A stretch of 36,417 nt of DNA from a virus (lineage: Duplodnaviria > Caudoviricetes). Shown here in pieces: positions 2,481-28,551 of this stretch. The notes beneath the pieces were generated by a model, which saw only the letters and a program-made list of their open reading frames with translations, ran no database searches and was not told the DNA's origin. How positions within the stretch are numbered: the first letter of the stretch is position 1; each line of letters starts with the position of its first letter. The stretch spans positions 1 to 36,417 of IMG/VR virus record IMGVR_UViG_3300036444_000041, one strand, 5' to 3'. The position numbers and the translations under genes were made by a program.

Positions 2481-3068
2481 ATGTACGGGGGTATCAAGCC
2501 GTCAACTGTGCTTGGTCACGACGAGTTCGCTCGACATGACGCAAGCCAGACTTGGGACGACGCCGGCATTCATGCGGAGTTGGCGGCTGATCTGTTGCGT
2601 TCGAGTGAGGATGCGATCACCGAGGCCGTGACTGCCTTGCGCGACAAGCACAACGCGCTCGAGCAGGAGCTGTCTGCCACGCTACACAGTTACGCCGCGC
2701 ATCAGGTGCGCGATGCGGTCGTCGACTACCTCGGCCAGAGCGAGTTTTACCTCGTGCTGCATGAGGGAGAAATTCACATCATGATCGACGGCTCGAATGA
2801 TCTGGCTGCATTCCAGCCGCTCGTGAAGCTCGATCAGCTCCTGATGCGCGCCAAGACGCAGGCGACGCAGCAGGGCGACATGGACTTCCTCAGCCGCATG
2901 GCTGACCTCACGTCGGCCCTCCCGAACATTCAGCAGAAACTCGCCGAGACGCCGACGCCGATGCCGATCCACGCGAAGCGCGCCTCGCGTGTCCCTGGTC
3001 CGCCTCCTCGCGCTCCCGGTCGCATTCCGGCGAAGGGTGGGGGTGCTCGTGCAGCGGCAGCGCGGTAA
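2481..3068 (+). CDS. Hypothetical protein (helical, basic Pro-rich tail)
   Basis: ATG at 2481 with GAGAGGGA SD, in frame with ORF 2388..3068. Phage-like codon usage. Confidence 0.7.
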   Translation: MYGGIKPSTVLGHDEFARHDASQTWDDAGIHAELAADLLRSSEDAITEAVTALRDKHNALEQELSATLHSYAAHQVRDAVVDYLGQSEFYLVLHEGEIHIMIDGSNDLAAFQPLVKLDQLLMRAKTQATQQGDMDFLSRMADLTSALPNIQQKLAETPTPMPIHAKRASRVPGPPPRAPGRIPAKGGGARAAAAR

Positions 3069-3117
3069 AGCGAAACGCTCGAAAGCCAAGAAAGTCGCGC
3101 CGCGTCCTCCCGAGGAT

Positions 3118-3405
3118 ATGTGGCGCGACGACGGGCTTCTCAGTCTCGCGACAATGCATGCGGCATGCCTTTCTGAGCAGCTCGACGCAGCTTCGCACAT
3201 GCCTGAAATCATGAATGCATCGGTGGGGGCGGCCCTGCTGGCCAACTCCGTGTTTCTCCATGCGCTCGGCTGCGATGATCCTGACTGCAAGGAGTGCTCC
3301 GTGCACTTCCGCAATGTCGATTATCGAAAGCTCGCCCACAAGGTGCTCGACATGCATCTCGACCGAGCCGCCATCATCAATCTCGAAGCCGAAGGTCACG
3401 CCTGA
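3118..3405 (+). CDS. Hypothetical protein with CDDPDCKEC motif
   Basis: ATG at 3118 after GAGG (start uncertain). TGATG coupling to the next ORF. Confidence 0.55.
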   Translation: MWRDDGLLSLATMHAACLSEQLDAASHMPEIMNASVGAALLANSVFLHALGCDDPDCKECSVHFRNVDYRKLAHKVLDMHLDRAAIINLEAEGHA

Positions 3406-3566
3406 TGGTTACCGACTATCTCATCTCGAAGATCGACAAGCAGATCGACAAGTCGCGCACGAATTCCGTCCTCTTCGACAAGACGGACATTCAAGCGCTC
3501 CTCGATGAGGTGAAGCGCAACCGCCTCAAAGACCGAATGGCCAACATGAAGAAGAGGCCGCAGTGA
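3405..3566 (+). CDS. Small hypothetical protein (MVTDYLISK...)
   Basis: TGATG overlap at the start and GTGA overlap at the end. Confidence 0.6.
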   Translation: MVTDYLISKIDKQIDKSRTNSVLFDKTDIQALLDEVKRNRLKDRMANMKKRPQ

Positions 3567-3868
3567 GCGACAATCCTCGCATTTTCCTCGGGGCCAATCG
3601 GCCGCCGAGTGACTGGGTCGACCATAAGACGGATGCCGGTGCTTCGGCGCTATACGGCGCCATGGTGGGGCTCGAGAGCCGCGAGTTCGATGGCAACATG
3701 GCCCTGACGGGAATGACGCTCGACAAGTCCCTCGAGCTGTTTCTGCAGGATGTGGCGGCGCAGGCTGGCATCGAGGCTGCATCCATTTACGCGAGCAGGC
3801 TCATTCAGGGTCTCGAGCGTTTTGTGATCCACAACACTGGCATGAAGACCACTAAAACCAAGAGCTAG
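3563..3868 (+). CDS. Hypothetical protein
   Basis: GTGA coupling with the upstream ORF, GAGG SD, 101 aa. Confidence 0.65.
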   Translation: MSDNPRIFLGANRPPSDWVDHKTDAGASALYGAMVGLESREFDGNMALTGMTLDKSLELFLQDVAAQAGIEAASIYASRLIQGLERFVIHNTGMKTTKTKS

Positions 3869-3901
3869 CGCCCTCGGGCGAATATAGGTAGGTGAACACA
3901 T

Positions 3902-3949
3902 CAAGGTTGTTCCCCCGGTTGTTGTTTCAGACCTGGAGAGACGACCTTG
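3902..3949 (+). promoter_or_regulatory. Hairpin sequestering the portal RBS and TTG start
   Basis: CAAGGTTGTT (3902-3911) pairs with GACGACCTTG (3940-3949) using G-U pairs, and the stem continues through GGAG. Confidence 0.55.
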
Positions 3950-6667
3950 CCGCGCATCCGCTCGCAATCCGTGCCCATGGACTATGACGACTCGTTGAGC
4001 GACGAGGAAGTCTACGAGGGCATGTCGCAGGACGATCTCACCGTCCGCTTCGACAATCCGGATCATCAAGCTCTCGCGTCCACATTCGAGATGGGCGAGG
4101 ACGGCGAGGTCTTCGAGTCGAGCAACGACGACACGCCCTTTGAGAGCGGCGGCGTCGAAAACATCAATCATCAGCAGAACCTCGCCGAAGTGATGAGCGA
4201 GGATTTCCTCGCAACCCTCGGCGACGACATCGTTGAGCGTGTCGAGCGCGACATCACCGAACGCGAACCGTGGCGCCGTCGTTTCGAGCGCGGCCTCGAG
4301 CTGATGGGCCTCGTGCAGTCCGACATCGATGACGGTGCGTTTCCGGGCGCGTCCGACGTCGTCCATCCGCTTCTCGTCGAAGCTGTGACGCACATCTGGG
4401 CGCGCACGCTCGGCGAGCTGTTCCCCGCAGAGGGTCCAGCAAAGTCGAAGGTGCTCGGCGATCAGCGTCAGGACCGCATCGAACGCGGCGAGCGCGTCGC
4501 CGAATACATGAACTATGAGCTGATGGTCGAGGATGAGGACTACATCAACGAGACGTCGCGTCTCTTGTGGTCCGTTCCGCTCCACGGGTGCGCGTTCCGC
4601 AAGACGTTCCGCGATCCGGTGCTCGACCGCAACATCGGCATCTTCGTTCCCGCTGAGGACCTCATCGTCCCGGCCGAGGCGACGGGCCTCAAGACGGCAA
4701 AGCGCTTCACGCACCGTATGCGGAAGTCGCCGAACGACATCCGGCACATGCAGATCGTCGGGTACTATCGCGACATCGAGATCAGCGCGCCGACCGTCGA
4801 GGAGGCGGATGAAATCCGTGACCTCAAAAACGAGGCTGTCGACGTTCAGCCCGATGGCGATGATGAGGACGTCGAGCACGAGATTTTCGAGACGTGCACG
4901 AACCTCAGTCTGCCGGGATACGAGCACACTGACGCGGAGGGGAATCCGACAGGCCTCGAGCTGCCCTATATCGTCAGTGTGGACCGTCACTCCCGACAGG
5001 TGCTCTCGATCTATGCCGGCTGGAAGCAGGGCGACGCTCGCTTCCGCCGCAAACTCTATTTCACGAAGTACAGCTTCGTGCCGGGCTTCGGCTTCTACGA
5101 CTTCGGCCTCTTGCATCTGATCGGCGGCCTGCAGGCTGCGGCGACGGGTGCGCTCCGCGTGCTGCTCGACAGCGCGGCGACAGCGTCCCTTTCCGGCGGC
5201 TTCATGTCGAAGAACGCCAATCTGAAGGGCGAGACCATGGTCGTCTCGCCGGGCGAGTGGCGGCCGGTCGACGCGACGAGCGAGGACCTGCAGAAGGCAT
5301 TTTTCCCGATCCCCGTGAAGGAGCCGTCTCCGGCTCTGTTCCAGCTTCTCGGCCTGCTCATCGAAGGCGCGCAACGCTTCACGGCCACAACCGACATTCA
5401 GACCGGCGGCTCTGACGGCAAGAACGTTGCTGTCGGCACGATCACGCAGCTCCTCGAGCGCGGCGAGAAGGTCATGTCGACCATCCATCGCCTGCATCAC
5501 GGATCGGTCGCCGACGAGCTGCGGCTGCGCTTCGAGCTGTGCTCCGACTACGCCCCTGAAGACGGCTATCCCTACGATGTGGCTGGCGAAGAGCGCTCGG
5601 TTTACGCTGAGGACTTCCAGCCGGGTATCGACATCATCCCGGTGTCAGACCCCAACATCTTCTCATCGAGCCAGCGCGTCGCCATTGCGCAGGCCGTCTA
5701 TGAGGTGTCGGCCGCGAACCCCGACGTCGTGCCGCGCAAGGTCGCCATCAAACGTCTCTTCAAGGCCATGCGGGCGCCCGACGTTGACGAGCTGGTGCCC
5801 GAGGATGCGCCGCCGCAGCCGTATGATCCGGCCGGCGAAATCCAGGCCATCCTTCTCGGCAAGCCGGTTGCCGTGCTCCCCGAGCAGCATCACGAGAGCC
5901 ATCTCAAGGTGCTTTGGGCGTTCATGTCAAACCCGGAGTTTGGCGGCAATCCGCAGGTGCAGGCTCAGGTCGGGCCGGCGGCTATCGCGCTCATCGGACA
6001 GCATCTCGCATTCCAGTGGGCGACGGCAGCGCGCGGCATGGGCGCGCCGGTCGAGTACATGGACCCGCAGTCGGGTCAGATGCAGCCGCCGCAGGTGCCG
6101 CCGGAGCAGATCGCAATGATGCTCGCTCAGATCGCGCCGAACCTCGCGACCGTACCGGGCCTCCCGTCCATCGAGGGCGGCGAAGGTGGCGACGACAAGC
6201 AGGCTGATCTCGAGATCAAGCGCGAGGAGCTGCAGCTCAAGAAGGAAGGTCAAGATCAGGAGCTGGCTCACGACCGCGAGAAGCATCAGCAAGAAATGGC
6301 GATGAGGACCGAGGAGCATGAATTCAAAAAGCAGGAGCTTCAGGCGAAGACCGAGCTGAAAATTCAGGAAGGTCAGATGAAGACCCAGGTCGCCCAGGCC
6401 CAGGCTCAGCAGGACATGGCCCTGCAGGCTCAGCAAGCCGAGCAGCAAGCTCGAATGAATGAGCAGCAGATGGTGGTCGACCAACAGAACATGCAGACGC
6501 AGCAGGCGATGGATCAGCAGCGCATGGCTCACGAAAGCGAGCAGATGCAGCGCGAGGGCGCGCTCCGTGAGCAGGAGAGTGCGCAGGATATGCAACACAA
6601 AGAACAGCAGCATCAGCACGATCAGCAAGTCGGCGCACGCCAAGATCGCAACAGTCACTTGAGGTAG
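3947..6667 (+). CDS. Portal protein (P22-like, long Gln-rich C-terminal coiled coil)
   Basis: 906 aa. Motifs typical of this podovirus portal family (VHPLLVEAV, ELFPAEGP, PGFGFYDFGLLHLIGG, PVSDPNIFS). Located after terL. Confidence 0.92.
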   Translation: MPRIRSQSVPMDYDDSLSDEEVYEGMSQDDLTVRFDNPDHQALASTFEMGEDGEVFESSNDDTPFESGGVENINHQQNLAEVMSEDFLATLGDDIVERVERDITEREPWRRRFERGLELMGLVQSDIDDGAFPGASDVVHPLLVEAVTHIWARTLGELFPAEGPAKSKVLGDQRQDRIERGERVAEYMNYELMVEDEDYINETSRLLWSVPLHGCAFRKTFRDPVLDRNIGIFVPAEDLIVPAEATGLKTAKRFTHRMRKSPNDIRHMQIVGYYRDIEISAPTVEEADEIRDLKNEAVDVQPDGDDEDVEHEIFETCTNLSLPGYEHTDAEGNPTGLELPYIVSVDRHSRQVLSIYAGWKQGDARFRRKLYFTKYSFVPGFGFYDFGLLHLIGGLQAAATGALRVLLDSAATASLSGGFMSKNANLKGETMVVSPGEWRPVDATSEDLQKAFFPIPVKEPSPALFQLLGLLIEGAQRFTATTDIQTGGSDGKNVAVGTITQLLERGEKVMSTIHRLHHGSVADELRLRFELCSDYAPEDGYPYDVAGEERSVYAEDFQPGIDIIPVSDPNIFSSSQRVAIAQAVYEVSAANPDVVPRKVAIKRLFKAMRAPDVDELVPEDAPPQPYDPAGEIQAILLGKPVAVLPEQHHESHLKVLWAFMSNPEFGGNPQVQAQVGPAAIALIGQHLAFQWATAARGMGAPVEYMDPQSGQMQPPQVPPEQIAMMLAQIAPNLATVPGLPSIEGGEGGDDKQADLEIKREELQLKKEGQDQELAHDREKHQQEMAMRTEEHEFKKQELQAKTELKIQEGQMKTQVAQAQAQQDMALQAQQAEQQARMNEQQMVVDQQNMQTQQAMDQQRMAHESEQMQREGALREQESAQDMQHKEQQHQHDQQVGARQDRNSHLR

Positions 6668-6671
6668 GTCA

Positions 6672-8369
6672 ATGTCACCTTTCGAAAGCGTTCCGCAGAC
6701 ACCCGCCCCCGCTCCGGCCCCGGCCGAAGACCCCGGCTGGTTCGGAGGTGAGAGCGCCAGCTCGCAGCTTCAGAAGGCCGCGATGATCGCGCTCGGCCTC
6801 GGCGCGGCCGGTCCGGTGATGAAGGGTATCAGCAAGCTCTCGAGCCCGTTCTCGAAGGTCGCGGCGGGCGGCGCGCTCGGTGCAGGTGCCGGTGCATTGA
6901 TGATGCCGGAGGAAGCTGCCGCCGATCCGGCTGCCGCGAGCGATCCCGACGTCATGATGTTCCAGCAGCTTCAGGGTGACCTCCAGTCCACTCGCGAGAA
7001 GCTCGATCAGCAGACGAACGGCGTGAAGGACCCGACGTCCGGCAAGTGGGTCGTGCGTCCCGGCAAGGGGCCGGACTATGATGACCTCAAGGCGCGCGAG
7101 GGGTCGCTTGACGCACAGCTTCAGGAGATCAGCGCTCGCATCTCAAGCAAGAGCCAATTCCAGCAGGATGAGGCGAAAGCGCAGCGGCTCGCCGATCACC
7201 AGTCAGAAACGAACGCGTGGCGCTTCGGTGGCCTCGGGGCGGGCGCTGCCGGCGGTGCGACGCTCTCGGGTCTCGCTGCGATTCTGTCGCGTGGCCGAGC
7301 CGGAAAGTTTTCGAACGTCGCTGGCAAGATCGGCGAGACGATGAAAACCGTCCCTGAGGGCGAGATGGTCGCCGGCACGAAGGCCGGTGACGAGCTGATG
7401 GGCTTGGTCGACGAGGCGCATACGCTGCGCGGTCAGGCCGCGCCGTTCTCGAAGATCGACGAAGCGCCGAAGTCGGGCATGCTCAGCAAAGCCGAGCCGC
7501 GCTTCAAGCCGGAGACGTCGAAGAGCCAGGGCATGGGCGACACCTTTGAGAAGCCGATGACGTTCGGCGCGGCCGAGTGGGCACTCCCCGGCGCTGGTCT
7601 CGCCGACTTCGCCGGCATGCAGGCGATGAAGCTCACGACCGACGATGAGGATCAGCAGAAGCTTTATGACGATGCTGGGCAGGCCGGGCTCGGTTTTGCA
7701 GCGGGCTCGAAACTCGGTCGCCTCTTGACGAAGCAGGCGACGCCCTGGGCGGCTGCGAGCCAGCTCAAGGGCGGTGAGGCCGCTGCGGTGAAGACCGCCC
7801 GCTCACGGGCCGTCCGCGACACGCAGAACGCTGGTCCGAATTTCCAGAGCAAGGCTCCCGCTGGGTCGGCCGCGCCGACGCCCGCCGTGGCCAATAAGGC
7901 GCCCAACAAGCAGAGCAAGGCTGACCGGATCAGGCTCCTGCAGGATGGTCGCGTCGCGCGCGGCGCGCACAATCAGGCGCTTAGCGATGAGAAGGTCGCT
8001 CAGCGCATCTCAGCGCTCGCAGGAGAGGGCAAGACGGCTCGGCAGGCCAAGGCAGCCATTAAGGCCGAGCTGGGCGTGGAGGTGCCCTTCAGGACGTTTG
8101 ATCGGCATTATCGCCGGGCCGGCGCGGCAGTGAGCAAGAGCGCGCGGGAGGCGAGCGAGCTGTCCATTGCGCGGGCGGTCGCTGAGCAGGGCCAGCGCGG
8201 AGGGTTCGAGATCAGCAAGCTCGCCGGAAATACGTCGTCAGCGGGCTACCGGAGCGCCATCCAGTCGGCCTTGGGTGCCCTGAAGCAGAATCCTGAGTTC
8301 GCGAAGATGTCTGACCAGGACCTCGTGAAGGTCATTCGCCGGACAGCGCGGCAGCTCTCGCGTCAGTAA
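6672..8369 (+). CDS. Ala/Gly-rich hypothetical protein, possibly virion-associated
   Basis: 565 aa directly after the portal with GAGGT SD. Gly/Ala hydrophobic segments and a basic C-terminus. Confidence 0.7.
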   Translation: MSPFESVPQTPAPAPAPAEDPGWFGGESASSQLQKAAMIALGLGAAGPVMKGISKLSSPFSKVAAGGALGAGAGALMMPEEAAADPAAASDPDVMMFQQLQGDLQSTREKLDQQTNGVKDPTSGKWVVRPGKGPDYDDLKAREGSLDAQLQEISARISSKSQFQQDEAKAQRLADHQSETNAWRFGGLGAGAAGGATLSGLAAILSRGRAGKFSNVAGKIGETMKTVPEGEMVAGTKAGDELMGLVDEAHTLRGQAAPFSKIDEAPKSGMLSKAEPRFKPETSKSQGMGDTFEKPMTFGAAEWALPGAGLADFAGMQAMKLTTDDEDQQKLYDDAGQAGLGFAAGSKLGRLLTKQATPWAAASQLKGGEAAAVKTARSRAVRDTQNAGPNFQSKAPAGSAAPTPAVANKAPNKQSKADRIRLLQDGRVARGAHNQALSDEKVAQRISALAGEGKTARQAKAAIKAELGVEVPFRTFDRHYRRAGAAVSKSAREASELSIARAVAEQGQRGGFEISKLAGNTSSAGYRSAIQSALGALKQNPEFAKMSDQDLVKVIRRTARQLSRQ

Positions 8370-8674
8370 GAGAGCCAGATTGTGAGCGGGATGACGAACA
8401 TCAGAGCGAAGCAACCGGCGGTGACGCAGCCGACGATGCGATTCCAGCGTGCATCGGTGAAGGCGCGGCGGATGTTGTCGCGGTAGTCCATCGCGCCGGT
8501 GAAATCGAGTTCTGACATGGCTCGAGCGTAGTTCGCCAGCTCCGCACCCTGCGGCCCCGCGCCCCAGCGTTCGGCTGAGCGCGCGAGCTTTGCGGTCTCG
8601 CTCATGAGCGTGCGCTGAAAGTCGCGCTCGAGCACGGAATCCTGGAAGCGGTCGGGCAATTTTTGATCCATCAA
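8363..8674 (-). CDS. Small membrane protein (C-terminal TM helix)
   Basis: Hydrophobic C-terminus IVGCVTAGCFALMFVIPLTIWLSY. Coupled to the upstream minus-strand ORF. Confidence 0.65.
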   Translation of the reverse strand: MMDQKLPDRFQDSVLERDFQRTLMSETAKLARSAERWGAGPQGAELANYARAMSELDFTGAMDYRDNIRRAFTDARWNRIVGCVTAGCFALMFVIPLTIWLSY

Positions 8675-8976
8675 GCGGCCTTTGGCACCTCAGCCCACAT
8701 AAACCCATTCCAGCGAACGTGACGACGGGCGTCCGAGCCCGCATTCAACACGAGGTAGCGGTTAGGGCCAAGCGATGTCACGCGTTCCCATGCATCTTCG
8801 ATTGCGGCCCGAGGAGTGTCCCCATCCCCGCTCACCATCGTCAGCACACCATCCCCGCCGATCTCGATAGAGCCAAGTGTGACGTACCAGCTTCCCGGCT
8901 TGCGCATGAAGACGGCGCAATCACTGCTTAGCGGCGACAGGCTTTTGAGCGCGGCGAATTTCTGTTCCCAGTCCAT
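8671..8976 (-). CDS. Hypothetical protein
   Basis: ATG with GGGA SD, part of a tightly packed leftward operon. Confidence 0.7.
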   Translation of the reverse strand: MDWEQKFAALKSLSPLSSDCAVFMRKPGSWYVTLGSIEIGGDGVLTMVSGDGDTPRAAIEDAWERVTSLGPNRYLVLNAGSDARRHVRWNGFMWAEVPKAA

Positions 8977-8982
8977 GATTCC

Positions 8983-9174
8983 CTACTTCGCCTTCGGCTT
9001 GCCGAATGATTCGACAAACTTCCCCGTGTCATCGAACAGCTCGACGGTGTCGTAGCCGTGTACAGTGAGTTGGTTGCGCGCGTGCTGCTTCGCTTTTTCG
9101 ACAGTATCAGCACGCCACGGCGCGCTCATGGGCTTGCGCCCCTCTTTCGAGAAAATCAACCTGAAGATCGGCAT
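8983..9174 (-). CDS. Hypothetical protein (MPIFRLIFS...)
   Basis: ATG at 9174 preceded by TAAAGGAAAC, which is the upstream stop plus SD. Confidence 0.65.
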   Translation of the reverse strand: MPIFRLIFSKEGRKPMSAPWRADTVEKAKQHARNQLTVHGYDTVELFDDTGKFVESFGKPKAK

Positions 9175-9188
9175 GACGGGGGTTTCCT

Positions 9189-9416
9189 TTACTCTCGGCC
9201 GCTGTACTGAAATTCGCACGCGGCGGCTATTTTCGGCTGAAGCGCGGACCCGTCCTTTAGGACGCGGCCGAAGTGGTTCGTGACGTACCATCCGCCATCA
9301 GGCTTGCGGTTCGCCGTGTACCACTTCGGAATGCGGATGCTGTTCCGCTCCGGGGTCACTTGATAGTACCCCATGCCGAAACGCTCGATTTTAAATCCGC
9401 GATACGGGTTCTTCAT
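9189..9416 (-). CDS. Hypothetical protein (MKNPYRGF...)
   Basis: ATG at 9416 with GAGG SD, packed between neighbours. Confidence 0.65.
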   Translation of the reverse strand: MKNPYRGFKIERFGMGYYQVTPERNSIRIPKWYTANRKPDGGWYVTNHFGRVLKDGSALQPKIAAACEFQYSGRE

Positions 9417-9427
9417 GATCCCGGGCC

Positions 9428-9574
9428 TCACTTTGAGTTTTCGAGCGCAATCATCCGCGCGTCATAGCCACAGTCGTTGCACTCCCAACCCGTATCAAGC
9501 GACCCACGGCATCGCGGACACTTGTCTTTGGACACCATTTCCTTCTCGTAACTCGTCGTAGGCTGGTCGATCAT
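9428..9574 (-). CDS. Small zinc-ribbon protein
   Basis: CPRC...CNDC (two CxxC). ATG at 9574 after GAGGA. Confidence 0.65.
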   Translation of the reverse strand: MIDQPTTSYEKEMVSKDKCPRCRGSLDTGWECNDCGYDARMIALENSK

Positions 9575-9582
9575 TGCATTCC

Positions 9583-9792
9583 TCACTGAACGTTTAGCCC
9601 GTACTTGGCGGCCCACTTGCGAAGGCCGTCGCTTGAGCGGCCCGTTACTCCGACTGGAGCCGCCTCAGCGAATTCGAGAACAAGTAGCGGCTTCCACTGC
9701 CCCTTAGGGGTCGCCGTCTTGACCATCCGCGCAGCCACTGGGGCTGTGTTGCTGACGATCTTGGCAGCTATGTTCTGCGGAAGGGTCTGCAT
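9583..9792 (-). CDS. Hypothetical protein, first gene of the leftward operon
   Basis: GGAG SD, immediately downstream of the leftward sigma70-like promoter. Confidence 0.65.
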   Translation of the reverse strand: MQTLPQNIAAKIVSNTAPVAARMVKTATPKGQWKPLLVLEFAEAAPVGVTGRSSDGLRKWAAKYGLNVQ

Positions 9793-9819
9793 TGTCCGTC
9801 TCCGTTGTTCGATAAACCC

Positions 9820-9884
9820 AATCTAGCGAGTCTGAACCGCCGTGTCAATACGTGTCTTGACACTTGCATACAAATCTGTACTAT
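9820..9884. promoter_or_regulatory. Back-to-back sigma70-type promoters with a palindromic operator
   Basis: GTGTCAA-N8-TTGACAC (9842-9863). Minus strand: TTGACA (9848-9843)-17-TAGATT (9825-9820). Plus strand: TTGACA (9857-9862)-16-TACTAT (9879-9884). Confidence 0.7.
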
Positions 9885-9892
9885 GTCACTCC

Positions 9893-10063
9893 ATGACCAC
9901 AATGGCCCGACTCAAAAAGATGACTTCGCTTGCGCTCGATCCCGAGTTGCTGGCGAGACTGGATAAGTGGATCGCGTCGCAGGACGTGCGGCCATCGAAA
10001 ACGGCTGTGCACGAGGCTGCGCTTCGGGAATTTCTCGATAAGCGCGAGACTAAGAAGCGCTAG
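9893..10063 (+). CDS. Ribbon-helix-helix (Arc/CopG-like) DNA-binding protein
   Basis: TSLALDPELLARLDKW...SKTAVHEAALREFL fits the RHH pattern. Start at 9893 or 9902, possibly leaderless. Confidence 0.8.
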   Translation: MTTMARLKKMTSLALDPELLARLDKWIASQDVRPSKTAVHEAALREFLDKRETKKR

Positions 10064-10114
10064 CTTAAACTAAGGAAAGTCCTGTGCAGGCAACTTAACT
10101 TTCAGGTTTGCAGA

Positions 10115-10735
10115 ATGAAGAGAGTTAAACAGGACCCTGTCAGCAACAACCGCCTTGTCGGTTATGCCCGCGTCTCCACGGCTGAGCAAAACGTGGATGC
10201 CCAGTTAGAGGCTCTGCGGGCAGCCGGGGTCATGGAAGACAACCTGTATTATGAGACGGGCTCAGCAGTGAAGCGAAGCCGCCCAAAGCTCAATCTTGCT
10301 CTGATGGACGCTCGCGAAGGTGACACCTTCGTCGTCTACAAGCTCGACCGCCTAGGTCGGTCCATGCGTGATCTGCTCACGAAGATGGAAGACCTTGAGA
10401 AGCGGGGAATCAAATTCAAGTCGCTGACTGAGGGCATCGATACGACGACACCCGTTGGCCGTCTCGCCTTCCACATGATCGGAGCACTGGCTCAGTTCGA
10501 GCGTGACTTGATCGTGGAGCGAACCAAATTCGGCGTTGCCGCTGCAAAGCGCCGTGGTGTTCCGATTGGTGCTCCCCGCAAGATGACGCCTGGGAAGGTA
10601 GCAAAAGCCGAAAAGCACCTGAAGGACGGCAAGTCCGTTGCTTGGACCGCTGGCGCGTTGGGCGTCACTCAGCCGACGATCTATGCAAACGTTTCACCGA
10701 AATTGATCCGCAAGTGGAAGCGGAAGAAAACATAA
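10115..10735 (+). CDS. Small serine recombinase (resolvase/invertase family)
   Basis: GYARVST catalytic Ser motif, GDTFVVYKLDRLGRS, FERDLIVERT, C-terminal HTH (KSVAWTAGALGVTQPTIY). Confidence 0.96.
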   Translation: MKRVKQDPVSNNRLVGYARVSTAEQNVDAQLEALRAAGVMEDNLYYETGSAVKRSRPKLNLALMDAREGDTFVVYKLDRLGRSMRDLLTKMEDLEKRGIKFKSLTEGIDTTTPVGRLAFHMIGALAQFERDLIVERTKFGVAAAKRRGVPIGAPRKMTPGKVAKAEKHLKDGKSVAWTAGALGVTQPTIYANVSPKLIRKWKRKKT

Positions 10736-10746
10736 GGAGCGCCGAC

Positions 10747-10983
10747 GTGACCCGTGTAGCCGAGCTGTCCGAAAACTGGCTTGAAGACGAGATTGAAGCG
10801 AGCGTCCCAAAATGCCGTTTCGGGTGTGACGACGCTATCGGCATCTACCACATACCCAAAGGCTGTCACTGCTGGCCTGATCCGGTGCAAGCGCTTTGCA
10901 TTCAGCACTTCATAAAAGCAGAAAGCACGGGACCGATTACCCTCATGATGGCGCTCACGCAGGACGCGCCGTTCTCAAAGTAA
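10747..10983 (+). CDS. Cassette ORF 1, Cys/His-rich hypothetical
   Basis: GTG 6 nt after the junction. CRFGC...CHC...CIQH. Confidence 0.7.
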   Translation: MTRVAELSENWLEDEIEASVPKCRFGCDDAIGIYHIPKGCHCWPDPVQALCIQHFIKAESTGPITLMMALTQDAPFSK

Positions 10984-10993
10984 GGAGCGCCCC

Positions 10994-11281
10994 GTGGCTG
11001 GTTGGAACACTAACGCTCAAGAATTCGCGAACGCGATAGTCGAATTTGAAGCCGCGCTGCCGGGCTTCTGGTGGTCCGTAGGGCAATGCTCCGTTGGCGC
11101 CCACGCGTCGTGCGCGCCGGACGGAAAAGGGTGCCAAGCTGAGTTAGCCGAGAGTGCAAAATTTGGAGAACCGCTTGACAGCGGCTTTCACTGCGACACA
11201 GACGGCGGCTCGCCCGCCGATGCGTTACGCGACGTGATGCAGCAGGCGCTTGAGTATTTGCAGAACTACAAAGCAGCATAA
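10994..11281 (+). CDS. Cassette ORF 2, hypothetical
   Basis: GTG after the junction, stop forms the next junction. Confidence 0.75.
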   Translation: MAGWNTNAQEFANAIVEFEAALPGFWWSVGQCSVGAHASCAPDGKGCQAELAESAKFGEPLDSGFHCDTDGGSPADALRDVMQQALEYLQNYKAA

Positions 11282-11291
11282 GGAGCCCGTC

Positions 11292-11510
11292 GTGACCGTC
11301 ACTCGTGAGGAAGTTTGGGAAGCGCAGGCGGAAGTGAACCGCCTGTATGAAGCCCTTAAAATCGCGCTTGAGAAGCGTGACCGGTTAGTGGCTGCTCGCT
11401 ACCCCAAAGGGAGCCGGACCATTGTAATTCGGGAAGAGCCGGATTGTGCAATATCAGACCTCCGAGCGGAAGAACAGAATCTTTCGAGGGCGTCGGATCA
11501 TTCAAACTAA
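11292..11510 (+). CDS. Cassette ORF 3, hypothetical helical protein
   Basis: GTG after the junction, stop forms the next junction. Confidence 0.65.
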   Translation: MTVTREEVWEAQAEVNRLYEALKIALEKRDRLVAARYPKGSRTIVIREEPDCAISDLRAEEQNLSRASDHSN

Positions 11511-11523
11511 GGAGCACAATGCC

Positions 11524-11694
11524 GTGCCGTTCGGAGACGAAATCGGAGAGATCGCGAAACGCCGCGCCGCAGCGTGCGAGCGACTGGAAAAGGCGCTAGC
11601 GCACAAGACGCGGCTTGAGCTACTGGCCATCATAACCGGATGGATGTCGGTAGAAGATTTAGAGAAGTTAGCAGAATTCCAAGACAGAGAGTAA
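11524..11694 (+). CDS. Cassette ORF 4, hypothetical
   Basis: GTG 8 nt after the junction, stop forms the next junction. Confidence 0.65.
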   Translation: MPFGDEIGEIAKRRAAACERLEKALAHKTRLELLAIITGWMSVEDLEKLAEFQDRE

Positions 11695-11703
11695 GGAGCC
11701 GCC

Positions 11704-11907
11704 ATGCGACGCAGGTTCAAGAGCCTAGAGATGGACGTCGAGTACCGCCGCTTCGCACTCGATGGGAAGGGCGGCGTGTCGCTATCCATTCCAGGTTTCG
11801 CGGACTTCCGTCTGACGATGACGCTTGAGGACGCTGAGACGCTTGGCGACGCGTTGATCGCGTGCGTTCGTGGCGCAGAAAAGAAGTTAGACTCAAATCC
11901 TAGATAA
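11704..11907 (+). CDS. Cassette ORF 5, hypothetical
   Basis: ATG after the junction, stop forms the next junction. Confidence 0.7.
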   Translation: MRRRFKSLEMDVEYRRFALDGKGGVSLSIPGFADFRLTMTLEDAETLGDALIACVRGAEKKLDSNPR

Positions 11908-11918
11908 GGAGCCGTGAC

Positions 11919-12107
11919 GTGTCCGACGAAATGCGATGGATAGTTTCGGGCGTAATTCTGCTTGTGGGGCTTGTGAACTTCCTACTCGCGCTCCAAACGC
12001 GTCGGCGTGTTCTCGATGAGCGCAAGCGAGAATTAAACCGTCGTGACCCACTTGGACGCCCCTATCACGACAACACGTATTCTTGGTCTAGAGAGCATTC
12101 GAGATAA
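11919..12107 (+). CDS. Cassette ORF 6, single-TM membrane protein
   Basis: WIVSGVILLVGLVNFLLAL followed by a basic stretch. Confidence 0.7.
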   Translation: MSDEMRWIVSGVILLVGLVNFLLALQTRRRVLDERKRELNRRDPLGRPYHDNTYSWSREHSR

Positions 12108-12117
12108 AGGAGCCGCT

Positions 12118-12258
12118 ATGCGAATCCATTGGCGCAAGGTGCTTTGGGTTTATCGCTCTGCCGATGACGGATGGTGCGTGTTCATTTTCAAGCGCGGCTA
12201 CCATGTGACGCCGATCTCGAACAATGATCGGCGCGTTCTTCTCGATTTTGATTACTGA
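12118..12258 (+). CDS. Cassette ORF 7, 46-aa hypothetical
   Basis: ATG after the junction. Ends in TGA immediately followed by TAAAGGAGC. Confidence 0.6.
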   Translation: MRIHWRKVLWVYRSADDGWCVFIFKRGYHVTPISNNDRRVLLDFDY

Positions 12259-12272
12259 TAAAGGAGCGGCCG

Positions 12273-12473
12273 ATGGCCATCGACCTGACCGGCGCACGTG
12301 TAGAGAGCAGCTCTTTCTTTGCCTCTCAGTTTCCCGCTGCAATTGAAAGCAACGGAGGCAAGCCGCTATCGGGCGTCGTCCGTCGCGTTACCAAGGGCGG
12401 CCTCTGTGTGGTGAAGTGGAAAAACTATCTCAGCGAGCACACCCTTCACCCTGAACACCTCAAGCGAATTTAA
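12273..12473 (+). CDS. Cassette ORF 8, small beta-rich (possibly SH3-like) hypothetical
   Basis: ATG after the junction. G.RV...GVV.RV....VVKW pattern. Confidence 0.7.
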   Translation: MAIDLTGARVESSSFFASQFPAAIESNGGKPLSGVVRRVTKGGLCVVKWKNYLSEHTLHPEHLKRI

Positions 12474-12482
12474 GGAGCCGCG

Positions 12483-12707
12483 ATGAAACGCCCTTCGGAA
12501 AAAGAGCTTGCTGCTTTCCAGAGAAAAAACCGTCGCCGTCTCGGAACGGGTGCTCAGGCTATCGCTTACGCGATTGACCACGAGGATGACCATTACGACC
12601 GTCTTAATTTTCTGAAGGCGTGGCAGGACGGAAGCCTTGCAGACGACAATACCGAGTGGCCGGAGTACCAGACATGGCTTCGCGGCCAGCGCAAAAAAGC
12701 AGCTTAA
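12483..12707 (+). CDS. Cassette ORF 9, hypothetical
   Basis: ATG after the junction. Ends at the degenerate terminal junction. Confidence 0.7.
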   Translation: MKRPSEKELAAFQRKNRRRLGTGAQAIAYAIDHEDDHYDRLNFLKAWQDGSLADDNTEWPEYQTWLRGQRKKAA

Positions 12708-12813
12708 AAGGAGACAGAAAACGACTTGTCACGCAGGGCGAATACGGTGATGACCGTCCTGCCCACACCACTACCGGGCATCAGCTCCTCCAATTCAGTT
12801 AGAGAGAGGAACG

Positions 12814-13065
12814 ATGCTCACAGACTTCATCGAGGATGTCCTCAAGGACATCGACAAGCAGACGCAGACGCTGATGACTTCACTCATCGCGGCTGACGGA
12901 AATTCTCGGCACGATCTCATTCGCGGTCGCATCACCGGCCTGTCCGATGCGAAAGACGCCATGCAGAAGCTGGCTCGCGAATACAACGCCGTTGAGAACG
13001 TGCAGCCGGTCGAGCAAGTCTCGCAGCGCGTCGCATCGTTCCGCGCGCACCGCAGGGGGCTCTAA
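12814..13065 (+). CDS. Small head-module hypothetical protein
   Basis: GAGGA SD, TAATG-coupled to the GroES-like gene. Confidence 0.75.
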   Translation: MLTDFIEDVLKDIDKQTQTLMTSLIAADGNSRHDLIRGRITGLSDAKDAMQKLAREYNAVENVQPVEQVSQRVASFRAHRRGL

Positions 13066-13493
13066 TGCACCTGCCGGGAAACTCAGAATTCGACGATAAA
13101 ATCGCCCTGGCGGACATTGACAGCCCGCTTCCTCAGGGCATCCCGATGCCTCCGCTCTGGAAGCTCGCGGTCATCCCCGTTCGCCTGCGCAAAATGTCGA
13201 AGGGCGGCATTATCCTCACCGATGACAGCGCCACGGCGGCGCTCTGGCATCATCAGCTCTTCAAGATCGCAGCCATCGGGTCGCAGGTCTACAAGGGCAA
13301 GGCTTACGAAAGCTATGACCTCGCCGAGGATGACTATCCGAAGGTGGGTGAGCTGTGGCTGGTCGATCCGAAGCAGCCGCGTCGTTACGAATTCAGGGGC
13401 ACCACCATCGTCATCATCAACGACGATCAGCTCCTGTCTCGCGTCGACCCGGCAATGACCGAGCACCTGAAGTTCAACGGGCTTGAGCTTTAA
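13065..13493 (+). CDS. GroES-like co-chaperonin
   Basis: P.LWKLAVIP, mobile loop MSKGGIILTD, PKVGE, IINDDQLL. Located in the head module. Confidence 0.85.
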   Translation: MHLPGNSEFDDKIALADIDSPLPQGIPMPPLWKLAVIPVRLRKMSKGGIILTDDSATAALWHHQLFKIAAIGSQVYKGKAYESYDLAEDDYPKVGELWLVDPKQPRRYEFRGTTIVIINDDQLLSRVDPAMTEHLKFNGLEL

Positions 13494-13516
13494 GCGCACC
13501 GAGAGAGGATCGAAGA

Positions 13517-13828
13517 ATGACCGCAGTTGCTTCACACACGAAAGGGCCGGCCGGGCATCAGCATCGCCGTCCTCCGCACAAGGCAATGCTTGTGCCTCGC
13601 TCTGAGATGACCGAGTCCGGAACCATTCGCTGGTTCGATGGCTCGCGTCACTACGGCTTTATCATTCCTGACGATCACGACAGCGCGGACGTGTTCCTGC
13701 ATGAGTCCGTGCTCAAGAAATATCGCATCCGACCGGACCTCGTCGATAAGGACGTTCGCGTCTTCTACAAGGTCCGGATTCAGTCGAACGGGAAGCCTGA
13801 AGCCATCGCTCTAGCGTTGGATCAGTAA
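13517..13828 (+). CDS. Cold-shock domain protein
   Basis: GTIRWFD, RNP1-like HYGFI, RNP2-like DVFLHES. Confidence 0.9.
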   Translation: MTAVASHTKGPAGHQHRRPPHKAMLVPRSEMTESGTIRWFDGSRHYGFIIPDDHDSADVFLHESVLKKYRIRPDLVDKDVRVFYKVRIQSNGKPEAIALALDQ

Positions 13829-23517: not shown

Positions 23518-23572
23518 AGACATTCGGAACGAATACGACTACCTGACCAAGATCGATAAAGGAGCGCGTAGA

Positions 23573-26793: not shown

Positions 26794-28551
26794 ATGGCCA
26801 GCCCACTGACGACACTGCTGGAAGCCAACGGCTTCACCCCTGACAGCAACGAGTACAAGATGGCTGTCGCCAACGAGCAGTTCCGCAATACGTGGCGGGA
26901 CAAGATCGAAGGCGGACAGAAGCCGACGCTTGCGCAAGCGGGCCTCGGTGCGCTCATCAACGGCGGCGTTGCTGGCCTCTCTCGAGTGGGCGGCGCCGAT
27001 CATGCCGGCGCGATGAGGACCGTTGCCGATTATGATCCCATTGCCAAGATGCAGGCGCTCAACGCTGAGATGTCGAAGTTCGACATCAACAGCATGAGCC
27101 AGGACCTCGGCGCGGTCGCGGCTGCAAACAAGAAGCGCAGCATCGATGCCATTCTCAATCCGGGTGCTGCATCGCGCGCTCGCCCCGGCACGCCCGACCC
27201 GACGCAGATCAGCGGACCCGGCGCTGCGGCACCCGCCATTCAGCCAGGTACTGGCCCGTCTCCCGGCATGCAGGGGACGCCTTCCGGACCGGCTCCGGCG
27301 CGCGGTGGGGATAATCAGCCCGCAAGCCCGGCTGCAACGGCTCAGCCCGCTCCTGCGGCTCAGCCCGCTCCTGCGGCTCAGCCCGCTCCTGCGGCTCAGC
27401 CCGCTCCTGCGGCTCAGCCCGCTCCTGCGGCTCAGCCCGCTCCTGCGGCTCAGCCCGCTCCTGCGGCTCAGGGTGGCCCTGCGGGACCTGAGCGCGGCGG
27501 CGCCTACCGGCCGCGCTTCACAACGGAACAGGTCACGGCAATCAGCCAGCTCGACCCCGACCTCGCGAAGCGTCTCGAGGAGGCGAACAAATTCGGCCTC
27601 GACGTCTCGAAGCACGATCTCGATCAATCGAAGTTCATCCTCGATCAGCACAAATTCGTTCTGGATAATGATCCTGCGCACAAAGCGAAGATGGCTGAGG
27701 CGAGCGAGCTGGGTACGCAGCGCGCGAAGGCGGGCGCTGAAAAAGAGAAGATGGACAGCGCAGCCGGCGCAGTCGGCAAGATGGTCGACGAGCTGGAGGA
27801 AATTTCGAACGACCCGAATCTCGGCGGCGCAATCGGCCCTCTCGATCAGTATGGCGTCGTGACCAATGCAAAGGGCGCTCTCGGCGCGAAGAGCTATGCG
27901 GTCGGCGCCCGCATCGACATGCTAACGCGCGGCCTCGAGCTGAAGATGACGCGCCTCCTCATGCAGGGGCAGGGTCAGATCACCGAGGGCGAGCGCGCAA
28001 TCGTCCGCGATCACATCGGCAACCTGCGAGCCGCGAAGGATAAGGGCGACTATCAGAACCGCGTGAAGATGCTTCGCGAGGTCATTGGCTGGCAGATGGG
28101 TCGGCCACTACCGAGCGACGCATCGCCCGAGCAGGTTGATCTTGCGCAGAAGCTCGCCGCAGCTCGCCAATCTGATCCTCGCGTCGTCGATCCGGCTGCG
28201 CTCGAGCAGGAGTCCGCGAGCTTCGACAAGGAAAACACCGACTTCACGAACGCACGAAACGTGCTCGACCAAGCTCGCGCGCAGTTGCCTCCGGAGGAGT
28301 ACGCCAAGGTCGAGGCAGCCTTTCAGCAGCGCTTCTCCGGCCTTGAGGGCAAGGCTCCGGAAGCCGCCCCTGCTGAACCGGCTGCACCCGCAGCTCCGGC
28401 GGCCACGGGCGACAACTCTTTGACCGGCGGCAAAGAGCAGCCGTATGCGCCGCATGCTGTTCTGCGCGACTACATTTTCAACCCGATCTCGGATGAGGCG
28501 GCGAAAGCGTATGAGGGCCTGAAGAAGGGCTGGGGCTTCGGGGGTAAATAA
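26794..28551 (+). CDS. Putative internal virion/ejection protein
   Basis: 585 aa, Ala/Gln-rich helical, GQGQITEGER motif. Located in the ejection cluster. Confidence 0.65.
   Translation: MASPLTTLLEANGFTPDSNEYKMAVANEQFRNTWRDKIEGGQKPTLAQAGLGALINGGVAGLSRVGGADHAGAMRTVADYDPIAKMQALNAEMSKFDINSMSQDLGAVAAANKKRSIDAILNPGAASRARPGTPDPTQISGPGAAAPAIQPGTGPSPGMQGTPSGPAPARGGDNQPASPAATAQPAPAAQPAPAAQPAPAAQPAPAAQPAPAAQPAPAAQPAPAAQGGPAGPERGGAYRPRFTTEQVTAISQLDPDLAKRLEEANKFGLDVSKHDLDQSKFILDQHKFVLDNDPAHKAKMAEASELGTQRAKAGAEKEKMDSAAGAVGKMVDELEEISNDPNLGGAIGPLDQYGVVTNAKGALGAKSYAVGARIDMLTRGLELKMTRLLMQGQGQITEGERAIVRDHIGNLRAAKDKGDYQNRVKMLREVIGWQMGRPLPSDASPEQVDLAQKLAAARQSDPRVVDPAALEQESASFDKENTDFTNARNVLDQARAQLPPEEYAKVEAAFQQRFSGLEGKAPEAAPAEPAAPAAPAATGDNSLTGGKEQPYAPHAVLRDYIFNPISDEAAKAYEGLKKGWGFGGK
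27338..27471 (+). repeat. Perfect 18-bp tandem repeat CGGCTCAGCCCGCTCCTG x7.4 (encodes AAQPAP)
   Basis: Seven identical units plus 8 bp, read directly. Confidence 0.95.

Follow-up and report, generated by a model that had tools for sequence, protein, structure and literature searches.

Why is a phage recombinase gene followed by nine short, unrelated genes that are all joined by nearly the same junction, and could the enzyme be what brings them together? The question is raised by a 36,417-nt stretch of DNA from a tailed virus (Duplodnaviria; Caudoviricetes), positions 1 to 36,417 of IMG/VR virus record IMGVR_UViG_3300036444_000041, referred to here as the window. A sequence-only reading of this stretch had proposed a system that captures and shuffles cassettes. 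Comparison with related loci supports that proposal: whole-gene differences are bounded by the junction and related arrays differ in content; the role of the recombinase is deduced from this pattern. The locus is probably an integron-like cassette system in which a resolvase-type enzyme inserts and excises single genes, with crossover at a GAG core inside the Shine-Dalgarno sequence.

A serine recombinase heads an array of nine short genes

The recombinase, the junction at its end, and the nine cassettes with their open reading frames (ORFs) are arranged as follows.

10115..10735, plus strand: small serine recombinase, 206 aa, catalytic Ser21 (codon 10175-10177), with a C-terminal helix-turn-helix (HTH) and an extra helix
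10733..10740, plus strand: recombinase-end junction (attI-like site), stop codon plus AGGAG, core GAG at 10737-10739; breakpoints of relatives map here
10740..10987, plus strand: cassette 1, 248 nt; ORF 10747-10983, 78 aa, no family match
10988..11285, plus strand: cassette 2, 298 nt; ORF 10994-11281, 95 aa; upstream box (see below) TTTGCAGAAC at 11257-11266
11286..11514, plus strand: cassette 3, 229 nt; ORF 11292-11510, 72 aa
11515..11698, plus strand: cassette 4, 184 nt; ORF 11524-11694, 56 aa; upstream box TTAGCAGAAT at 11668-11677
11699..11911, plus strand: cassette 5, 213 nt; ORF 11704-11907, 67 aa
11912..12112, plus strand: cassette 6, 201 nt; ORF 11919-12107, 62 aa, with a hydrophobic N-terminal stretch
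12113..12266, plus strand: cassette 7, 154 nt; ORF 12118-12258, 46 aa, stop TGA followed by TAA
12267..12477, plus strand: cassette 8, 211 nt; ORF 12273-12473, 66 aa
12478..12713, plus strand: cassette 9, 236 nt; ORF 12483-12707, 74 aa; terminal junction TAAAAGGAG at 12705-12713

The recombinase matches PF00239 with 148 bits (cut-off 23), and its closest PDB sequence is Gin (E = 8.5e-40). The AlphaFold model (pLDDT 92.5) consists of a catalytic domain, a long E helix, an HTH, and an additional C-terminal helix, with helices at residues 113-147, 159-170, 175-182, and 186-192. The best folds returned by Foldseek are Tn3/γδ resolvases (E = 1.7e-14). The Y-x-R-x-S and D-R-x-x-R motifs are present with Y17, R19, S21, D78, R79, and R82 invariant, and the catalytic residues do not vary across a 40-row alignment. 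The best 120 database relatives are 50-78% identical and mostly metagenomic; 111 of them carry a GVxx[DEN]N motif that is not seen in the ordinary resolvases compared. These data identify the protein as an intact member of the resolvase/invertase family of small serine recombinases. Its gene has no clear ribosome-binding site (RBS), and the enzyme level would therefore stay low.

The junction is TAAGGAGC at positions 10733, 10981, 11279, 11508, 11692, 11905, and 12471 and TAAAGGAGC at 12105 and 12259, with a degenerate terminal copy, TAAAAGGAGA, at 12705. The sequence-only reading had placed all ten correctly and had described the ORFs as co-oriented and 46-95 aa long, which agrees with the sizes listed above. 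The seven occurrences of TAAGGAGC compare with 0.36 ± 0.59 expected, a count of seven was reached in 0 of 100 shuffles, and TAA(A)GGAGC does not occur on the minus strand of the window. Stop codons are separated from the next start by 9-14 nt. The fourth ORF requires the GTG at 11524 because a nearer ATG opens a frame of only 26 aa. A single copy outside the array, also reported earlier, is TAAAGGAGC at 23557 between two virion-region genes; it has no upstream box (score -3.3) and is likely an ordinary RBS. Apart from this copy the motif is confined to one array, and the starts of 45 other genes in the window show the varied or overlapping arrangements that the earlier reading had described, so the junction is not the genome-wide RBS of this phage. 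A plain RBS bias was rejected as an explanation of the junction.

None of the nine cassette ORFs scored above the PHROG, Pfam, or PADLOC threshold (the PHROG and Pfam queries for ORFs 4 and 6 carried two extra upstream codons). Comparison with the other fetched loci, designated by L numbers, found nothing in common except for ORF 2, and ORF 9 has no homologue except itself. ORF 2 has a 64% homologue in L181, another recombinase-linked small-gene array. The two genes differ at 29, 20, and 60 first, second, and third codon positions over 92 codons, and ORF 2 is a real gene under purifying selection because the differences fall mostly at third positions. In the ESM Atlas, ORF 2 falls with unnamed viral clusters at 0.90, with recognition below threshold.

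The junction follows one branch of the recombinase family

The junction played no part in the choice of loci, which were retrieved through similarity to the protein or through a back-translated protein motif and form sets of at least 79 viral, 13 viral, 49 metagenome, and 33 genome loci. Alignment-based viral scans covered 10 and 12 of 64 parts, and the matches listed, mostly Gin/Pin-like, were used as controls. Among 134 distinct complete recombinases, a stop codon followed after 0-3 nt by GGAG ends the gene in 41 of the 44 members of one branch versus 2 of the 90 outside it; the branch was defined on a quick tree of the 134 rows (SH-aLRT 96). In a careful tree of 63 chosen rows the junction is present in 36 of 37 branch members with support of 85/82, L194 being labelled negative there though it matches the junction rule in the other comparison. 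Subclade B is fully supported (100/100), and subclade A, which holds the window, is weaker (84/92). Two of the three exceptions to the rule within the branch have replaced C-termini and the third is L172. At the end of the L172 recombinase gene, a box, an 18-nt spacer, and a GGGAC variant are followed by no cassettes, as would be expected of an empty platform.

In an order-wide search of 401 genomes, 1 of 29 ordinary resolvases fits the junction rule, and no new family member was found among the 30 loci returned. The 2 kb after the recombinase contain a mean of 5.0 junction motifs in 24 family loci (including L009, which lies outside the branch) versus 1.4 in 76 other resolvase loci. At the 19 loci with both flanks, the array strand carries a mean of 5.3 junctions versus 1.3 on the divergent left operon (p = 0.0007). 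Where enough downstream sequence is available, a family recombinase is usually followed by an array of short genes; some arrays have only a few units, and the longest has at least 21 within 5 kb. The expectation that homologous recombinases would precede arrays with the same kind of junction and other content was borne out.

The array flanks are phage genes of many kinds, with a separate tyrosine integrase in five loci (68 of 95 flank ORFs scanned). Where a carrier has a name, it is a metagenome-assembled genome, with the labels Beijerinckiaceae, Pseudorhodoplanes, Hyphomicrobium, Bryobacteraceae, and Demequinaceae, and phage contigs may have been binned wrongly. INPHARED yielded 341 matching records, all below 60% identity and the best 40 listed at 50% or less; two of the records were inspected, and no cultured carrier was identified. 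A resolvase in the ordinary small-gene region of one cultured phage in this collection has overlapping junctions instead. A scan of viral contigs for a triple-junction pattern gave three matches, none of them an array, and used a single spacing that is too narrow to serve as evidence.

L181 (positions 2515-6629) encodes a related serine recombinase with another C-terminal part, has small-gene arrays on both sides, and carries a tRNA-Met(CAT) inside the array. Its divergent-strand junctions are TAGGGAC/TAGGAG. L181 is possibly a sister system.

Whole genes change at a GAG core

Close relatives define the unit that changes. L102 has the order recombinase-A-B-C and L130 recombinase-C; the pair has 3 mismatches in 600 nt of the recombinase, 330 nt extra in L102, and a unit C that is identical over 121 nt. 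L125 and L126 show the same two orders with 0 mismatches in 600 nt, 493 nt extra, and only GAG as the common core. Both of the near-identical pairs that differ (2/2) do so by exactly two whole genes at the recombinase-end junction, and the prediction that near-identical recombinases would be found with different gene content at the junction came true in these pairs. In the remaining non-identical pairs above 70% identity, too, the DNA beyond the junction is unrelated. Within single arrays, four units (235, 62, 121, and 131 nt) are present as duplicates with 0-1 mismatch; they are bounded by the core, and in 3 of 4 one copy is at rank 1. The changing unit begins directly behind one GAG, extends through the next, and consists of spacer, start codon, ORF, stop codon, A-rich tail, and AGGAG. 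Related arrays thus differ by whole genes cut exactly at the junction, and the enzyme therefore likely collects and shuffles genes. Integron-like gain calls for an entry site, and the differences lie at the recombinase end, where such a site would be; they may reflect gain or loss.

The letters common to the left of six unit starts are AGGAG in three cases, GAG in two, and none in one (AGGAA versus AGGAG), and 0-2 letters are common to the right of unit ends. These limits confine the crossover to GAG. The core variants found in relatives are ACGAG, GGGAC, and AGGAA, and GA would be favored over AG as a 2-bp core because GGAG, CGAG, GGAC, and GGAA have only GA in common. The sequence-only reading had taken TAA(A)GGAGC as a short core. 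The junction is the boundary, as it held, but the common core shrinks to GAG and the site is likely longer than 8-9 nt. The C after AGGAG stands at 9 of 9 window junctions versus 19 of 55 other plus-strand AGGAG sequences, but it is not invariant in the family, where it occurs in 53% of 162 cassette junctions and 59% of 39 recombinase-end junctions; by this comparison the spacer, including the C, belongs to the incoming downstream unit. The TGA at 12256 is followed by TAA as described, but TAG, TGA, and upstream stops occur in the family and TAA is not part of the core. An invariant core that includes TAA and the following C was rejected on these grounds.

The left side of the recombinase also varies. 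In L102, L130, L106, and L115, the identity between relatives stops at the RBS/start of the first leftward gene, about 135 nt 5' of the codon for the catalytic Tyr. Identity ends on both sides in close relatives, and the promoter-recombinase block therefore sits between two variable gene sets.

A degenerate box lies about 30 nucleotides upstream of the core

A degenerate box emerged from a position-free motif search in the 32 nt that precede the core. Of its 81 confident calls, 53 fall at -31 to -29, and its log-likelihood is 122 versus 50-64 in three control sets. Leave-one-locus-out scoring gave a mean of 2.14 bits, with 42% of sites above 3 bits, versus about 0 bits and 6-11% at seven control offsets. 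The box lies inside the ends of unrelated ORFs, about 30 nt upstream of the core. The subclade B box is TTGTTCGCAA-like and exceeds 5 bits in 33 of 92 cassette ends; the corresponding counts are 11 of 368 for controls and 4 of 59 for subclade-A ends. When a subclade-B matrix trained on cassette ends only is applied to recombinase ends, it exceeds 5 bits in 17 of 26 loci of subclade B and in none of the 14 of subclade A, and the distance to the core is the same there as in cassette ends. The subclade A box is TTTGCAGAAT-like and weaker, above 5 bits in 12 of 59 junctions versus 6 of 236 controls. The A matrix, built from cassette ends, exceeds 7 bits upstream of 10 of 14 subclade-A recombinases versus 2 of 26 subclade-B recombinases. 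Such a copy is present in the window.

10107..10116, plus strand: box TTTGCAGAAT, immediately ahead of the recombinase start; score 11.5 bits when the window is left out of matrix training

This copy is likely an operator of the recombinase. Boxes, some in inverted pairs, lie upstream of several recombinases. Tails of about 30 nt that start at the left edge of the box are common to 30 pairs of unrelated ORFs versus 5 pairs in the upstream control. Unrelated ORFs with common tails from box to GAG, which resemble lineage-specific attC families, were seen in L106, L115, L130, L137, L006, and L183. The common tails may record how cassettes are made.

Proposed mechanism

All units are co-oriented behind one predicted promoter, and relatives gain, lose, or duplicate exact units. 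In the proposed mechanism, the end of the recombinase gene would be the attI-like entry site and the last ~30 nt of each cassette would form an attC-like site composed of the degenerate box at -31 to -29, a spacer of ~18 nt, and AGGAG. Strand exchange would occur over 2 bp, GA or AG, as in other serine recombinases. An excised cassette would form a small circle that lacks a promoter, and if it reinserted at the recombinase end it would become the first in the array. Because the crossover falls inside the Shine-Dalgarno sequence, each join would rebuild the stop codon, AGGAG, spacer, and start codon, and newly arrived cassettes could be translated immediately. With an asymmetric core, cassettes could be deleted and inserted but not inverted. 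A more far-reaching proposal, which we put forward tentatively and regard as possible rather than probable, is a second, independently evolved class of integron in which the enzyme targets Shine-Dalgarno sequences, lifts small genes or small RNAs from ordinary phage operons, adds the ~30-nt tail, and feeds a cassette pool common to unrelated phages.

Several observations weigh against a cassette system run by this enzyme. The evidence is comparative throughout and comes from assemblies, metagenome assemblies among them, in which no circle, joint, or event dependent on the recombinase was observed; catalysis, circles, and direction are deduced. Support for the monophyly of the branch is moderate, and L009, L064, and L217 carry the junction outside the main branch. 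The L125 contig ends after 16 nt of unit C, the within-array duplicates could be assembly paths through mixed populations, and one duplicate starts after AGGAA where the other has AGGAG. The GGAG columns of the junction logo were set by the junction caller. The A box is weak in the window's own subclade and scores no better there than on subclade B (13/92, p = 0.59); it is absent from the recombinase ends in 14 of 14 subclade-A loci, and a box above 5 bits is found at only 2 of 10 window junctions, with the clear copies in cassettes 2 and 4. Background is also exceeded by 31 stop-plus-GGAG junctions that lie outside the called arrays (mean 1.20, p = 0.023), and their intermediate score weakens the contrast with the arrays. 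A mirror box was looked for to the right of the GAG core and none was found, unlike the canonical two-armed resolvase site. L150 (the same locus as L239) retains a seven-cassette array beside a catalytic motif, YARVFT, with Phe in place of Ser, and represents either a frozen array or a sequencing error. Finally, the main array of L181 is divergent from its recombinase.

Alternative explanations

The divergent L181 array, the Ser-to-Phe enzyme of L150, and the missing box at subclade-A recombinase ends also fit a reading in which the cassettes are real and are shuffled by another enzyme, either a phage annealase such as Erf/RecT or a host or phage recombinase acting in trans. In that case the serine recombinase would be linked to the array as a passenger, or its part would be limited to regulating or resolving the locus. 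L094 has Erf-like and RecE-like genes on its flanks. We regard this reading as unlikely. Only 3 nt of core are common in two cases, and homology-dependent annealing is generally held to need far more. In 41 of 44 cases the recombinase keeps a constant first position, with both flanks variable, and the box matches either the recombinase gene end or its promoter region, according to subclade. Less probable still is that the motif is a translation-control signal, a strong stop plus RBS for re-initiation, and that the turnover reflects selection on random illegitimate recombination that keeps genes whole. AGGAG is indeed the Shine-Dalgarno core, every insertion must retain an RBS, and the start-associated sequences (SAS) of cluster K phages also have conserved non-pairing bases near starts (PMC3203893). 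Selection for translation does not account for exact duplicates and indels that all end at the core, including a 62-nt non-coding unit, or for a box within unrelated coding ends and the tails common to unrelated ORFs. The junction is moreover restricted to one recombinase branch, and the cultured-phage resolvase in an ordinary small-gene region has overlapping junctions.

The last alternative has very little probability. It takes the enzyme to be the prophage integrase or a Gin-like invertase whose activity has no bearing on the array. In its favor are Gin as the closest sequence in the PDB, the lack of a tyrosine integrase in the 44.8-kb provirus record, which is 74% complete, and the integration of phiRSM phages by resolvase-like enzymes (PMC4471427). 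The recombinase gene lies mid-genome between portal and head genes, and five relatives have their own tyrosine integrase nearby; a role as prophage integrase was rejected for these reasons. An invertase was rejected as well: there is no inverted ~26-bp site pair among the listed repeats in 8300-13100, all cores are co-oriented on one strand, and the tail fibre genes are 9 kb away, so that neither an inverted site pair nor a tail-fibre segment flanks the recombinase. The cassette system driven by the recombinase is thus preferred over these alternatives.

Comparison with known systems

The recombinase has the fold, domain order, and catalytic residues of Gin and the Tn3/γδ resolvases. It differs from them in its setting, which has no inverted gix/hix-type pair, invertible segment, or two-armed crossover site around the core and has many degenerate direct sites per array; the earlier statement that this is not a Gin/Cin arrangement holds, as no inverted site pair was found among the repeats listed. 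SCC-like tRNA-anchored arrays also stack single-gene units moved by a serine recombinase, but these involve large serine recombinases, tRNA or rlmH targets, and 30-110-nt sites in bacterial chromosomes. To our knowledge, integron gene-cassette capture rests on a single enzyme family, the IntI tyrosine recombinases.

Integrons, as described in PMC9892861, resemble the present system in having a recombinase beside an entry site, single promoterless co-oriented ORFs that each end in their own site, gain and loss beside the recombinase, huge cassette diversity, and lineage-specific site families. The window likewise has a likely entry site beside the recombinase and a predicted promoter upstream of promoterless co-oriented cassettes. 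The enzyme differs, IntI being a tyrosine recombinase and the one here a serine recombinase, and here, unlike in integrons, the recombinase is the first gene of the array's operon and the site lies in coding ends plus the RBS (PMC9892861). The word 'serine' is absent from the main text of that paper, which covers phage-borne integrons among others (PMC9892861). The earlier view that the locus is not an integron agrees with the PF00239 enzyme and with the finding of no PF00589 domain in the 44.8-kb record. The 9-14 nt between stop and start leave no room for an attC hairpin, and no junction-linked inverted repeats were found among the 25 longest of 184 listed (a comparison made without an attC covariance model).

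The IS607-family transposases exchange strands at a dinucleotide (GG), have little other target specificity, and bind motifs 20-60 bp to one side of the crossover, which provides a precedent for a one-sided box (PMC6188088). In IS607 TnpA the DNA-binding domain is N-terminal, and the protein mobilizes its own element (PMC6188088), whereas the enzyme described here has an N-terminal catalytic domain and a C-terminal HTH, and its gene stays put. The cluster K mycobacteriophage SAS, 13-bp repeats of the form 5'-GGGATAGGAGCCC, have conserved non-pairing bases and lie 3-7 bp before starts; like the junction, they are AGGAG-containing repeats before the starts of non-structural phage genes with conservation beyond rRNA pairing (PMC3203893). 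They differ in being spread over the right arm, staying with gene families, and having a proposed translational role without a link to a recombinase in the account given there (PMC3203893); here the motif is confined to one array and neighbors change at the motif. The phiRSM integrase is a resolvase-like small serine recombinase that performs integration and excision in a phage, but it is described with a single 13-bp attP/attB for the whole genome and without a cassette array (PMC4471427). No description of a system like this one was found in the literature covered, which excluded most subscription papers and supplements, so its absence from print is unproven. The system appears to be categorically new: it is integron-like in operation and has neither a tyrosine integrase nor attC hairpins.

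Cassette contents

Junction calling in 44 loci gave 201 ORFs (median 65 aa) in 193 families, a total that includes some ORFs cut by contig ends and a few outside arrays. Four cassette families are common to different arrays and occur at different ranks, in line with the expectation that the small ORFs would recur elsewhere in other orders. Of the 150 complete ORFs of at least 40 aa, all but the two shortest and two long genes outside the arrays were compared with Pfam, and 8 of these 146 have matches: two methylases, QueD, DUF3850, an HTH, Pam3 gp59, an HNH, and Lar. These matches suggest counter-defence roles, and the cargo is likely to be host-takeover and counter-defence genes. Some units have no clear ORF. 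These are a duplicated 62-nt hairpin at L094:5560-5621 (z = -3.8), a duplicated 121-nt unit at L183:1670-1790 (z = -1.7), and a structured 129-nt unit with a tRNA-like beginning at L183:3237-3365 (z = -2.9). Neither Rfam nor ARAGORN made a call in the corresponding loci, and Rfam found a single tRNA only in the 15 loci searched. The units without ORFs are possibly small-RNA cassettes.

Genomic setting of the array

PHROG comparison identifies the window as a podovirus-like prophage stretch with terminase, portal, capsid, tail, and lysis genes. An insert of lower GC (0.55-0.57 per kb versus 0.61 overall) lies between the portal region and the head genes and holds a leftward small-gene operon, a divergent promoter pair, a ribbon-helix-helix (RHH)-like gene, the recombinase, and the nine short ORFs. 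The features to the left of the recombinase are the following.

9820..9848, minus strand: leftward sigma70-like promoter TTGACA-17-TAGATT, a consensus match predicted to serve the divergent small-gene operon 9792->8363
9857..9884, plus strand: rightward sigma70-like promoter TTGACA-16-TACTAT, a consensus match
9893..10063, plus strand: RHH-like repressor gene, 56 aa, apparently leaderless; phrog_18157 E = 0.0012; PF01402 E = 0.008, below cut-off

The promoter at 9857-9884 is predicted to transcribe the RHH gene, the recombinase, and the array as one operon; one consensus promoter is predicted here on the plus strand, and none within the array. A divergent promoter pair of the TTGAC..GTCAA type was matched 5' of the recombinase in 30 of 45 loci, and the RHH-like gene is missing from the corresponding place in most relatives. 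The leftward operon (8363-9792, minus strand) has six small ORFs with no family match; its starts overlap or vary, it does not use the array junction, and it looks like an ordinary accessory operon read from the divergent promoter.

PADLOC matched 0 of 16 window proteins. A 565-aa ORF directly after the portal gene (6672-8369, plus strand) has no PHROG, Pfam, or PADLOC match. Among the head genes (13065-13828, plus strand) are a 142-aa gene that is GroES-like by eye, with no library match, and a cold-shock-domain gene (phrog_729). A perfect 18-nt tandem repeat of 7.4 copies (27338-27471) lies within a 585-aa ORF (26794-28551). When the recombinase, the major capsid gene, and the GroES-like gene were each used alone to look for loci, only one further record was found, identical to the window where compared. 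The assembled contigs of three DNA sequencing runs, two of which may be where this DNA came from, showed neither joints nor variants and speak neither for nor against the mechanism; no RNA run was listed.

Significance

If confirmed, the system would be a convergent solution to gene-cassette capture that combines a resolvase-type serine recombinase with a site hidden in the stop codon and RBS of each gene. A 200-aa enzyme with a 2-3-bp core that leaves translation signals intact could serve for building or shuffling operons. The very small genes gathered in the arrays, most of them unannotated (138 of 146 lack a Pfam match), are candidate host-takeover or counter-defence factors. For phage biology, confirmation would also provide a mechanism for the long-standing puzzle of how small accessory genes are swapped so frequently and so precisely at gene boundaries.

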